From: an uncultured Acidobacteriota bacterium
Lineage (GTDB): Bacteria > Acidobacteriota > Thermoanaerobaculia > UBA5066 > DATFVB01
Direction: 5' to 3'
Length of the DNA: 64,000 bases
NCBI GenBank assembly: GCA_963813155.1
Contig: CAWEYG010000006.1
Span: 128,001 to 192,000 of the forward strand
Made by a program: the position numbers and the translations under genes. The notes under the pieces are model-generated. The model was not told where the DNA came from. It made no database searches and was given only the letters and a program-made list of their open reading frames with translations. Below are positions 46,744-53,350 of the stretch, in pieces; position 1 is the stretch's first letter; the number at the start of each line of letters is the position of its first letter.

Positions 46744-49342
46744 CTAGAGTTTGGGATCAGATCGGCACTCCCAGCCGAAGAACGCACTTCCGGCGTGTCA
46801 TGCCGTTGTCCGGTTGCTGTTGTTGTACGCGGCCTCGATGCCAACCGTGGTGGCCGCCGAAATGGTTGCCGTGCAACGCCGCGAGTTGCACGTCGTGCGC
46901 CGGATCCGTGATCGTGCAGGATCACAGCCGTTGATGCCGCCATCTCGCACGGATCGTAAAAGTCCGAGTGAAGTGCGTTGGCGAGCCTCCTCCCGTATTT
47001 CCCGGCGGCGTGTCAGCAAGACCGCAAGCTGCTTGCGCGGAGCATGCGCCGTTGGCCATCAACGTCTGACTGGCGGTCGTCTCGGTCGCCGCGGCGGCCG
47101 AAACACCCGAAGCCAAGGCATATTGCGTTTGGGTCGCCGCGTTCTTGGTCGTTCCCAGGCGAGTCAATGCTCCTGTCAGAGTTCGTCAGTGCCGAGGGCC
47201 CGACCACTCCCTGAGGTCCCGAGACGCCGCTCGGGCCGGAGGGTCCGCTCGGCCCCGGAATGCCCACGGTCCACTGGGCCCGGAGGGACCGCTGACGCCG
47301 GAGGGACCACTGACGCCGGACGGACCGCTGACGCCGGAAGGCCCGCTGGGTCCGCTGGGTCCGCTCGGGCCGGTCGGGCCGACGAGTCCCTGAGGTCCGC
47401 TGGGGCCGGACGGTCCGCTCACGCCGGAGGGTCCGTGGCACCGGGAAGGTCCGCTGGGCCCGGAGGGACCGCTCACGCCGGAAGGTCCGCTTCACGCCGG
47501 AGGGACCGCTCACACCGGAGGGACCGCTCAGACCGGAGGGACCGCTCGGTCCGGAGGGCCGCTCACACCCGAGGGGCCGCTGACACCGGAGGGCCCGCTC
47601 GGTCCGGACGGCCCGCTTACGCCGGAGGGACCGCTGACGCCGGAGGGACCGCTCGGTCCGGAGGGTCCGCTCACACCGGAAGGTCCGCTGACGCCGGACC
47701 GGTCCCGAAGGTCCGCTCGGCCCGGAGGGTCCGGTGGCGCCTTCCTGCGCAAGCAGGTTCCAGTCGGTAGTGACTCGCCGGATCGTCTCTGCCGGACAGC
47801 CGGAGGCATTGACGCAGACGAAGCTGGAGCCGCCGAATTCGACGGCGTCCCGGAAGTGTAGGCCGTTCCGGAATCGTCAGGCTCCCTGCCAGTTGAGGCC
47901 GTAGGGGCCGCTGGGACCCGAGACACCGCTCGGTCCGGAGGGACCGCTCGGTCCGAGAAGTCCTTGAGGTCCGCTGACACCCGAAGGTCCGCTGACGCCG
48001 GAGGGACCGCTCACGCCCGAAGGGCCGCTCACACCGGAGGGACCGCTGACACCAGAGGGACCGCTGACTCCCGAGGGACCGCTGACGCCGGAGGGACCGC
48101 TCGTCCGGAGGGTCCGCTCACGCCGGAAGGTCCGCTGACACCGGAGGGACCGCTCGGTCCCGAGGGTCCGCTGACACCGGAAGGTCCGCAGACGCCGCTC
48201 GGACCGGAAGGACCGCTCGGTCCGGAGGGGCCGGTAGCGCCTTCCTGGGCGAGCAGGTTCCAGTTGGGATCAGTACCCGGCGTGCCGGTGCAGCCGGCGA
48301 CGTTGTTACAGAAGTAGCTCGAGCCGCTGAATTCCACGGCGTCGCGGAAGTTGTACGTTCCCGCCGACCAGGTTCCCTGCCAGTTCAGACCGATGGGCCC
48401 GCTCGGTCCGCTGGGACCGGACGGCCCCAGAGCGCCGTTGGAGCCGGACAATCCCTGAGACCCTCTGGGTCCTGAGGGCCCGGAAGGGCCCGATGGACCC
48501 GAGGGACCGCTGGCGCCCAGTAGCGCCGTGTCGGGAAAGCTCATTTCGAATCCGGAAGCATCCTGACTTCCGTTGGCCACCTGCGCCCCCGCAAAGATCA
48601 CGTTGCCGCCGGCCGCGCTGCCCAGAGTCGAGGCCGAGGCCGCCACGACGGTGCCCACCAGGCGCGCGTTGGTCGTGGCGATGTTGGGGACGATGTCGTC
48701 GATGTTGGTCTGGTAGTGCTCGAAGCCTCCCAGCGGATAGTCTTTTCCGCCGAGCGGGTTTCCCAGCGCGTCGAGAACGTCGATATGGAAGGTCGCCGGA
48801 TTGCCCGTGGTCTCCACCATCGCGAAGTTGTAACGGAAGTTTTCGTTTCCACCCTGGTTGACGCCCTGAATGGTGGAGGACTCGCCCGGCTGCAGGGCAA
48901 AGAGCGACGGCACGCCGGCAAAGAAAAGCCCCGTGCTGGTGCCGAGATCCTGACCGGCGGGGAGATTGAAAATCCTCGAAGAGACAAAGACATCTCCGCC
49001 CGAGGAGACGATGTGCCCGGCCCCGAGCGCCGCGGTCAATCCAAACTTGTTGAGCATGATGTCTTCGTACATCTTCGTTTCGCCGGGAGCCAGCGAGTCG
49101 GCAAAGGAGGTGGGATTGGGATTGGCCTGTCCCGAAGCGAGGAAGAAGAAACCGAACGAGACGGGCTGCGTCGAAGAGAGGTTGGTGATCCAGACCGTCG
49201 TGTAGAACTGCGAGCCGGAACTGCCCGCCACGCGTCCGATCGAAGTCAGGTATGCGTCGCTCGAGGGAAACCCGGCGAAGGCGGGAACCGCCGCGAACGC
49301 CAGGATGATCGAGACGAGGATCGACACGAGGTTCCGCTTCAT
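46744..49342 (-). CDS. Secreted collagen-like protein, (Gly-X-Ser)n type (many indels in the 3' half; end approximate)
   Basis: Signal peptide ..VPAFA; ~250 aa beta-rich domain; GPS/GVS triplet tracts; two WQG..Y..RDAVEF.GSS..C..GC modules; beta-rich C-terminal domain ending ..AFFGWEC. Confidence 0.82.
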
Positions 49343-49401
49343 CGCCGCCCCCTTCGGGAGAAAAATTCCAAGTTCCTAAATGACCGGGGATTCCGGCGAG
49401 A

Positions 49402-52500: not shown

Positions 52501-53350
52501 CCGGTGGGCCCGGTCGCTCCGTTGCCGAGTCCTCCCTGGAAGAGCATCTCGAAGCCGGAGGAATCCTGGCTCTCGTTGGCGAGCTGCGCGCCCGCGAAGA
52601 TCACGCTGCCGCCGACGCCGCGCTCGCCGAGCGTCGAGGCGGAGCTCGCGACGACGGTGCCCACGAGACGCGCGTTCGTCGTCGAGATGTCGGGAACGAT
52701 GTCGGTGACGTTCGTCTGGAAGTGCTCGAAGCCGCCGAGCGGATAGTCCTTCGTGCCGAGCGTGTTGCCGAGGGCGTCGAGAACGCTCGACGCGGAAAGT
52801 GGCCGGGTTGCCCGTGGTCTCCACCATCGCGAAGTTGTAGCGGAAGTTTTCGTTGCCGCCCTGATTGACTCCCTGAATGGTGGAGGATTCGCCCGGCTGA
52901 ACGCGCGAAGACCGAGGGAACGCCGGCGAAGAACAGCCCGGTGCTGGCGCCCAGATCTTTGCCCGCGGCGAGGTTGAAAATTCGGGACGAGACGAAGACC
53001 TCTCCGCTCGACGAGACGATGTGCCCCGCGCCCAGAGCGGAAGTCAGGCCGAACTTCGTCAGCATGACGTCTTCGTACATTTTCGTTTCGCCGGGAGCGA
53101 GCGTGTCGGCAAAGGAGGCGGGATTCGGGTTGGCCTGTCCGGAGGCGAGGAAGAAGAAGCCGAAGCTCACCGGCTGGGTCGAAGAGAGGTTCGTGACCCA
53201 GACCGTCGTGTAGAACTGCGCGCCGTCGGCTCCCGCCACGCGGCCGATCGAAGTCAGGTAGAGATCGCTCGAGGCGAAGCCGGCGAAGGCGGGAACCGCG
53301 GCCAACGCCACGACGATCGAGACGAAAATCGACGCCAGGCCACGCTTCAT
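49584..53350 (-). CDS. Secreted collagen-like protein, (Gly-X-Thr)n type, with a BclA-CTD/C1q-like C-terminus (indels near 52910, 52790, 52410 and 52210)
   Basis: Signal peptide; N-domain nearly identical to that of the GPS paralog; long GPT/GAT tracts; eight Cys-paired modules; C-terminus [13 protein letters not shown]...GTYQV.Y..LNG.EIAGS..ISIVRIQ. Confidence 0.87.
50140..51080 (-). repeat. Intragenic 156-bp (52 aa) tandem repeat: six units, four nearly identical
   Basis: ATCCCTTGCCAGGTGATGCC recurs at 50281, 50437 and onward with a 156-nt period. Confidence 0.93.

Follow-up and report, generated by a model that had tools for sequence, protein, structure and literature searches.

Why would one bacterium keep, side by side, a collagen-like gene with Thr and another with Ser at the Y position of its Gly-X-Y triplets? 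The question is raised by a 64,000-nt stretch of DNA (the window) from an uncultured soil Acidobacteriota bacterium of the Thermoanaerobaculia type, contig CAWEYG010000006.1, positions 128,001-192,000. Both genes lie on its minus strand; we call the Thr-type collagen-like fibre gene B and the Ser-type gene A (coordinates in Table 1). The locus was compared with the rest of its own genome, with 37 related loci (L numbers) and with two genomes of the same genus, one of them the unpublished G002. Our preferred reading, to which we give a probability of roughly 0.6, is that A and B encode two Sec-exported trimeric collagen fibres and that A is a derived form in which Thr was replaced by Ser, the hydroxyl group being seen by selection.

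Nearly every Thr of the collagen repeats is exchanged for Ser in gene A. Thr occupies the Y position in 100 of the 136 triplets of gene B and Ser in four, whereas in gene A Ser occupies 90 of 114 and Thr three. Gene B consists mainly of GPT (71 triplets), with GAT (21) and GVT (4), and gene A of GPS (63) and GVS (24), as a preliminary description of the window had noted. The run of about 25 perfect GPT triplets that it reported was located in gene B. Val at the X position is found in 27 of 114 triplets in A versus 7 of 136 in B. Both genes scored above the cut-off for the Pfam Collagen family (PF01391, 27.2 bits): gene B with 138.9 bits (4.5e-41) and fragments of gene A with 51 and 32.9 bits (1.2e-13).

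The 5′ parts of the two genes are related. Positions 49361-48291 (A) and 53368-52263 (B) are 76.8% identical in DNA; for the N-terminal domain (N-domain) the DNA identity is 82.8%, and pieces of the protein are 73-79% identical. Upstream of about -20, A and B have in common only a TTGACT box and a TATyCT box. These belong to the only two promoter-like sites in 46500-53700, one per gene, against a mean of 0.2 in shuffled sequences. The signal peptide, N-domain, first linker and promoter had been described as nearly identical; the common 5′ part is real, but at about 77-83% DNA identity the likeness was overstated, and further upstream it is confined to the boxes.

Ser is the derived state in gene A, is limited to the collagen Y positions and has been maintained there. 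The closest counterpart of A is gene 1 of locus L012, with 75% identity across 371 aa that span the N-domain, the first linker and the first module. It is intact, comes from a short-read metagenome-assembled genome (MAG) and has the same upstream neighbours as B. Thr residues of this gene correspond to Ser in A at all seven aligned positions of the first collagen linker, at 3 of 21 in the N-domain and at 0 of 4 in the CBM-like module (Fisher p = 3.6e-5). The proposed concerted switch across triplets, with the hydroxyl kept, is thus upheld as wholesale and confined to collagen Y. The N-domain tree joins A and B as sisters (support 0.92); the branch of A is longer (0.163) than that of B (0.065). 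Among the collagen-bearing loci of the closest N-domain clade, all seven with assessable stalks are Thr-type (L011, L012, L014, L015, L017, L032, L035), and so are the two other collagen paralogs of the own genome. The stalks of L044 and L041 are Q/E/P-type, and no Ser-type stalk was found among the 37 related loci.

A profile search with the N-domain gave 3427 representative clusters at E <= 0.001, and Y residues were viewed for the best 150. Fifteen of these carry at least 10 triplets and are mostly Thr-rich or Q/A-rich; one of the best 150, P0021, is GPS-rich with GPT mixed in. The Ser/Thr dichotomy that had been expected among N-domain homologs did not emerge: the relatives are Thr-type, Q/A/P-type or, as P0021, mixed.

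As assembled, gene B contains four frame changes, near 52905, 52790, 52434 and 52210, and gene A at least eight, near 48100, 47880/47855, 47697, 47552, 47490, 47264, 47190 and 46925, together with in-frame stops. We compared the locus with contigs of X1, a public soil run that holds 28% of the sampled words and whose contigs are 90-99% alike to the locus. The X1 contigs listed cover only part of both genes, and few of the frame-change sites fall inside them. They carry both genes, including the Ser triplets of A, so that neither the Ser/Thr difference nor the two-gene arrangement is an assembly artefact; a collapse of two copies into one, which the preliminary description had named as a way to overturn its claim, is not what they show. 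They have one base fewer at 47877/47878 in A and at 52434 in B, which makes an assembly error likely at these two sites, and removal of base 52434 gives an unbroken Gly-X-Y reading in B. They also have one extra 9-bp triplet unit at 48500 and at 51906, indicating a strain-variable locus with repeat-number polymorphism. The own genome comprises 23 contigs with a total of 3.8 Mb, which suggests a long-read metagenome assembly. Most of the frameshifts would thus be consensus errors in a strain-variable locus of such an assembly. Programmed frameshifting or phase variation was considered and set aside, since two shift sites in the N-domain lie outside homopolymers and simple repeats and the GT-C genes nearby are also broken.

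The same frame changes could be read as locus decay, A, B and three GT-C genes being true pseudogenes and the Ser-rich array the product of drift in a dead gene. The split GT-C genes b, c and d, the four intact flanking genes and the longer branch of A would fit this. On the other hand, Gly-X-Y periodicity and Ser identity continue across every shift, the frame with the highest G+C content at third codon positions follows the reconstructed reading path, and the promoter boxes and the terminator are intact. Besides the three of four neighbouring GT-C genes, other N-domain paralogs of the own genome have broken frames; in short-read MAGs their counterparts are intact. Together with the X1 contigs that are one base shorter at two shift sites, these points make decay quite unlikely.

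The Ser codons of gene A are TCC (33), TCG (11), AGC (42) and a few others, giving 46 TCN and 44 AGY codons. The usual unit is GPS(TCC)-GVS/GPS(AGC), GPS being mostly written with TCC and GVS mostly with AGC in 18-bp units, and Tandem Repeats Finder reported periods of 18 and 54 bp in the collagen part. TCN and AGY are each one step from the Thr codons ACN but two steps from each other. Because they are not interconvertible in one step, Ser must have replaced Thr and become fixed at least twice independently before it spread. The 63 GPS triplets of A are spelled by 29 different 9-mers and the 71 GPT triplets of B by 24, 16 of them distinct within the 25 perfect GPT alone, which indicates that both arrays were kept at the protein level over synonymous drift.

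Repeats of this kind may also have evolved in concert without selection. One or two chance Thr-to-Ser changes could have been amplified by slippage and intragenic conversion, with Ser and Thr equivalent and the outcome of no adaptive meaning. The 18- and 54-bp periodicity and the 9-bp copy-number variants in X1 are what such a process would leave, and Ser and Thr are mixed at Y in many public collagens and in P0021. TCG and TCA are under-represented compared with ACG and ACA of the Thr-type relatives, which fits a few amplified founder units. However, the abundance of both Ser codon families calls for at least two founding changes in the same direction, the short first linker was converted completely although it is not an array, and Ser was kept at 90 of 114 positions across the 29 synonymous spellings. 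In addition, no Ser-type stalk was found in the seven clade relatives or the two same-genus genomes, which argues against free mixing in the clade. We therefore regard a purely neutral origin as possible but doubtful. Either selection or conversion may have driven the spread.

Long Ser-type stalks are uncommon but not unique. A search with the GPS/GVS segment of A gave 254 proteins at E <= 1e-5. Among the 120 matches listed, Ser makes up 70% or more over 50 or more triplets in six, in keeping with the earlier remark that long (GPS)n collagens are uncommon, and 50% or more in nine. P0252 has 15 GPS and 12 GVS in 31 triplets and P0164 has 42 GPS in 77; many other collagens among the matches listed mix Ser and Thr at Y. 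These Ser-rich metagenome collagens resemble A in having Ser at Y in most triplets. They differ in that hmmsearch found no N-domain in the 120 matches listed, and their ends are, by impression, phage-fibre-like. Burkholderia Bucl8 reportedly has a (GAS)n region, with Ser at Y. In model peptides Ser at Y is less favourable than Thr for the triple helix; our literature search on the propensities of Thr versus Ser at this position gave no usable result.

Table 1. Features of the collagen-like locus and its neighbourhood (positions in the window)
Feature	Position	Strand	Remark
Gene B, Thr-type collagen-like fibre gene	53350-49584	-	ATG 53350, stop 49586-49584
Promoter-like site of B: TTGACT, 17 nt, TATTCT	53403..53431	-	boxes conserved with gene A
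B signal peptide and ~270-aa N-domain (two beta-sandwiches)	52530..53350	-	no Pfam family
B run of 25 perfect GPT, within collagen segment 52199-51408	51966..52190	-	9-mer count
B two further single CBM5/12-like modules	~52357-52206 and 51407-51255	-	
B six tandem ~52-aa CBM5/12-like modules	50139..51071	-	tandem repeat and Pfam CBM_5_12
B C-terminal BclA_C (TNF/C1q-like) tip	49587..49994	-	PF18573, residues 891-1025 of 1026-aa frame
Gene A, Ser-type collagen-like fibre gene	49342-46744	-	ATG 49342, stop 46746-46744
Promoter-like site of A: TTGACT, 18 nt, TATCCT	49402..49431	-	boxes in common with B
A signal peptide and N-domain	48533..49342	-	75% identity, 371 aa, to L012 gene 1
A three GPS/GVS collagen segments: 48517-48383, 48241-47892, 47741-47193	47193..48517	-	triplet counts
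A two CBM-like modules between collagen segments	48382-48242, 47891-47742	-	
A C-terminal tip, ~150 aa, FGWEC motif at end	46744..47192	-	no Pfam match
Terminator-like hairpin 3′ of A	46707..46730	-	10-pair stem, 9 G-C pairs, then T-rich tail
ABC exporter	31706-33646	+	
GT2, polyprenyl-phosphate-sugar-synthase-like	33633-36233	+	nearest family; below curated cut-offs
Four PMT_2-type GT-C + TPR genes	36304-45011	+	b, c, d frame-broken
DegT aminotransferase	45046-46491	-	
Hexapeptide sugar acyltransferase	46149-46643	-	

Gene B starts with a signal-peptide-like sequence and the N-domain of about 270 aa, followed by collagen, a CBM5/12-like module of about 50 aa, a long collagen segment and a second module. 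Then come collagen, six tandem modules, a short collagen segment and the tip. The tip matched BclA_C (PF18573) with 45.8 bits (6.9e-12), above the cut-off of 38. CBM_5_12 (PF02839, cut-off 26.2) gave 46.7 bits (3.3e-12) summed over about eight modules, no single stretch being above the cut-off. The tandem two-cysteine modules inside the stalk correspond to a repeat at 50193-51043 (-) with a 156-bp unit, 5.4 copies and 95% matches, which looks like a recent amplification.

Gene A ends differently, with a tip that has no Pfam match, in line with the earlier view that the C-terminal domains are unlike. This tip is probably related to those of both collagen genes of L012. BLASTP gave E 0.09, and with a profile of these tips the two tip fragments of A ranked first and third of 1169 window fragments, scoring 7.5 and 6.5 bits in collinear order. 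Searching the own genome and the 37 related loci with the A tip by tblastx returned only low-complexity noise. The two adjacent L012 genes have a common tip, 71% identical over the last 153 aa. Against a set of 5.8 billion proteins the L012 tip matched nothing at E <= 0.001 within the length range searched. No fold was assigned to it, as the model had a pLDDT of 61 and Foldseek gave weak jelly-roll-like rows at E >= 0.003. Alignments of intact relatives to the window by tblastn with composition statistics off ran spuriously long through the repeats and were not used for mapping.

The N-domain defines a large mosaic family. It matched no Pfam family. The model of the A N-domain shows two beta-sandwiches (pLDDT 88.9), and its Foldseek matches were all generic two-beta-sandwich folds (arrestin, RbmA; TM <= 0.34 on the query), which assigned it to no family. 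The own genome has 17 N-domain matches, fused to collagen or Gly-rich stalks and to several tips. One paralog combines Thr-type collagen with a BclB-related tip (TIGR03721, 138 bits, cut-off 93), and in other copies the stalk is Gly-rich but not collagen and the end is a different conserved one. In the ESM Atlas the closest clusters consist of hypothetical proteins from Acidobacteriota, and the related loci come from MAGs of Thermoanaerobaculia, Holophagales and other Acidobacteriota. Modules are shuffled in L012, where one gene combines the N-domain with an A-like module and the next has no N-domain and a B-like module; this second collagen gene (L012:8263-9768, +), directly 3′ of the N-domain collagen gene, has its own signal peptide. 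L035 holds a further tandem pair with two additional tips. P0001 (1057 aa) contains two N-domain copies, each followed by beta-propeller-like repeats as judged by eye, giving the impression that the N-domain is also joined to non-fibrous partners. On own-genome contig C3, at 3562-4163 (+) and 354693-355124 (-), there are alternating GLS-GKP arrays of 69 and 48 triplets, a different Gly-X-Y type with Ser and Pro alternating at Y. Among the papers searched we found no work on this N-domain protein family and nothing joining Thermoanaerobaculia with collagen; those on Acidobacteria and ‘collagen-like’ were off-topic by title.

We also considered whether the genes next to A bear on the hydroxyl. 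The GT-C cluster lies 2-10 kb from A and is the only such cluster in the genome. PMT_2 (cut-off 26.1 bits) was matched above the cut-off by the frames 38769-41822 (55.2 bits) and 42869-44320 (50.9); the match of the gene at 36304 was weaker (17.5). The four genes fall into two types, a and b being 48% identical and c and d about 70%. Judged by their families, the neighbouring genes fit together as a set that would transfer a lipid-linked amino sugar in the periplasm. Glycosylation of the Ser and Thr residues of A and B by these enzymes is plausible from their adjacency, and since both proteins have signal peptides it would be extracytoplasmic. The PMT_2 domain with C-terminal TPR repeats is as in GT-C O-mannosyltransferases of the PMT/TMTC type, and the adjoining GT2 gene implies a lipid-linked donor for the neighbours; what ties these to A and B is adjacency.

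The preliminary description went further and tentatively paired the two GT-C types with two fibre glycotypes that have different tips; in such a model one enzyme type would serve Ser and the other Thr acceptors. In its favour are the presence of four PMT_2-type GT-C + TPR genes of two types so close to A and nowhere else in the genome, the adjoining GT2, ABC exporter, DegT and acyltransferase genes as a coherent periplasmic lipid-linked set, and the signal peptides on A and B. This pairing was not borne out and is very unlikely. G002 carries GT-C genes in tandem with matches to both types. Neither it nor the other same-genus genome yielded a Ser-type collagen; the best identity to the GPS/GVS segment of A was 58%, which we read as the value expected from Gly and Pro matches alone. 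The paralog types would thus predate the switch, a point that depends on G002. Moreover, no GT-C gene lies in the 6-kb flanks of the Thr-type loci L014, L017 and L032, and the two other Thr-type genes of the own genome are on contigs other than that of the cluster. PMT-family enzymes accept both Ser and Thr.

Two other observations concern the neighbourhoods. In L017 a Wzy_C (O-antigen-ligase-type) gene (L017:2179-3687, -) lies upstream of a Thr-type collagen gene; the Wzy_C family includes protein O-oligosaccharyltransferases. The window also contains cyclic di-GMP signalling genes, encoding a receiver-GGDEF-EAL protein (56774-58507, +) and a PilZ-domain frame (22215-23147, +).

Several known systems help to place the two fibres. 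According to PMC8968730, bacterial collagens most often have Thr at Y, and BclA carries glycans; this article and PMC11923368 describe O-glycans on Thr in the collagen region of BclA. The BclA/BclB exosporium glycoproteins of Bacillus and Clostridioides resemble B in the GPT-rich region and BclA_C, and the own-genome paralog in its BclB-related tip. Unlike them, A and B have a Sec signal peptide and an unrelated N-domain of about 270 aa in place of the exosporium-targeting N-terminus, belong to the phylum Acidobacteriota and have stalks interrupted by CBM5/12-like modules; any glycosylation would be periplasmic and not in the mother cell. Gene A differs further in having Ser for Thr and another tip. 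By these comparisons B would extend the BclA-like fibres to a further phylum, on a novel base and with a stalk that is interrupted, and A would be its Ser variant. In Riftia cuticle collagen, which like B has long GPT runs, a glycosylated hydroxyl replaces hydroxyproline as stabiliser, and the peptide (Gly-Pro-Thr)10, otherwise a random coil, folds only once its Thr is galactosylated (PMC11923368). Those are animal or synthetic systems. No tested counterpart of the all-Ser stalk of gene A was found in the papers searched. The Bdellovibrio fibre proteins of PDB 8okh and 8okw, which we take to be mosaic trimeric fibres, likewise form a family of several genes in which the N-terminal part is conserved and the stalk and tip modules are exchanged; the likeness concerns architecture only, and the L012 tip model gave weak fold matches.

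Taken together, we interpret gene A as a case in which a BclA-like collagen stalk was recoded from Thr to Ser in one lineage, within a large unnamed family of Acidobacteriota fibres. The anatomy, the direction of change, its restriction to Y and the codon pattern are shown by the data; the steps that follow are the preferred account of them. A and B would be members of a large mosaic family with a conserved base of two beta-sandwiches, about 270 aa long, a variable stalk and a variable tip. Each fibre would be a homotrimer nucleated by its own C-terminal tip, BclA_C in B and the FGWEC-ending tip in A. B would retain the bacterial default, Thr at Y. After A had split from its Thr-type counterpart, Y-position ACN codons would have changed to TCN and AGC by single steps, and expansion and conversion of 9- or 18-bp units (GPS-GVS) would have spread and homogenised Ser across the three collagen segments. 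From then on the protein would have retained Ser despite drift at synonymous sites. What selection sees may be the retained hydroxyl, most plausibly as an O-glycan acceptor and/or as a hydration site stabilising a triple helix free of hydroxyproline. The rise of Val at X (GVS) may offset the lost beta-branch of Thr.

A number of points weigh against this account. Neither gene is an open frame as assembled, independent contigs contradict only 2 of about 12 frame-change sites, and the four flanking genes (53.4-58.5 kb) are intact, so that errors would be non-uniform and real decay is conceivable. The family is mosaic, and L012 gene 1 is therefore not a strict orthologue. In N-domain DNA, A resembles B (82.8%) more than L012 (73.4%), whereas the CBM-like module of A is nearer to L012 gene 1 (82%, 40/49) than to B, the B side being judged by eye. 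The homology of the A and L012 tips is weak. Public collagens that freely mix Ser and Thr, and the mixed P0021, indicate that the residues can be interchangeable, and repeat expansion with gene conversion could alone spread one or two chance changes without selection. Finally, both A and B are known from DNA sequence alone.

A bolder version would make A a natural, recent recoding of a whole stalk selected at the O-glycan acceptor itself. The two fibre types would then differ in glycan occupancy or type, for example evading a phage, predator or lectin that reads a Thr-linked coat, and the GT-C/TPR array, as a TMTC-like system, would O-glycosylate the collagen stalks in the periplasm. We consider this unlikely.

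Bacterial collagens are without hydroxyproline, and Thr at Y, often glycosylated, is thought to stand in for it. The Ser-type gene A, its Thr-type neighbour B and the 75%-identical Thr-type counterpart form a matched natural set, and the matched pair lets one ask what the Y hydroxyl, as opposed to the Thr methyl, contributes to helix stability and O-glycosylation. If the neighbouring GT-C/TPR genes do glycosylate the stalks, the system would be a bacterial counterpart of O-mannosylation by the eukaryotic PMT/TMTC enzymes. The locus also brings to light a large and as yet unnamed family of surface proteins in Acidobacteriota, in which a conserved N-domain is combined with swapped stalks and tips.

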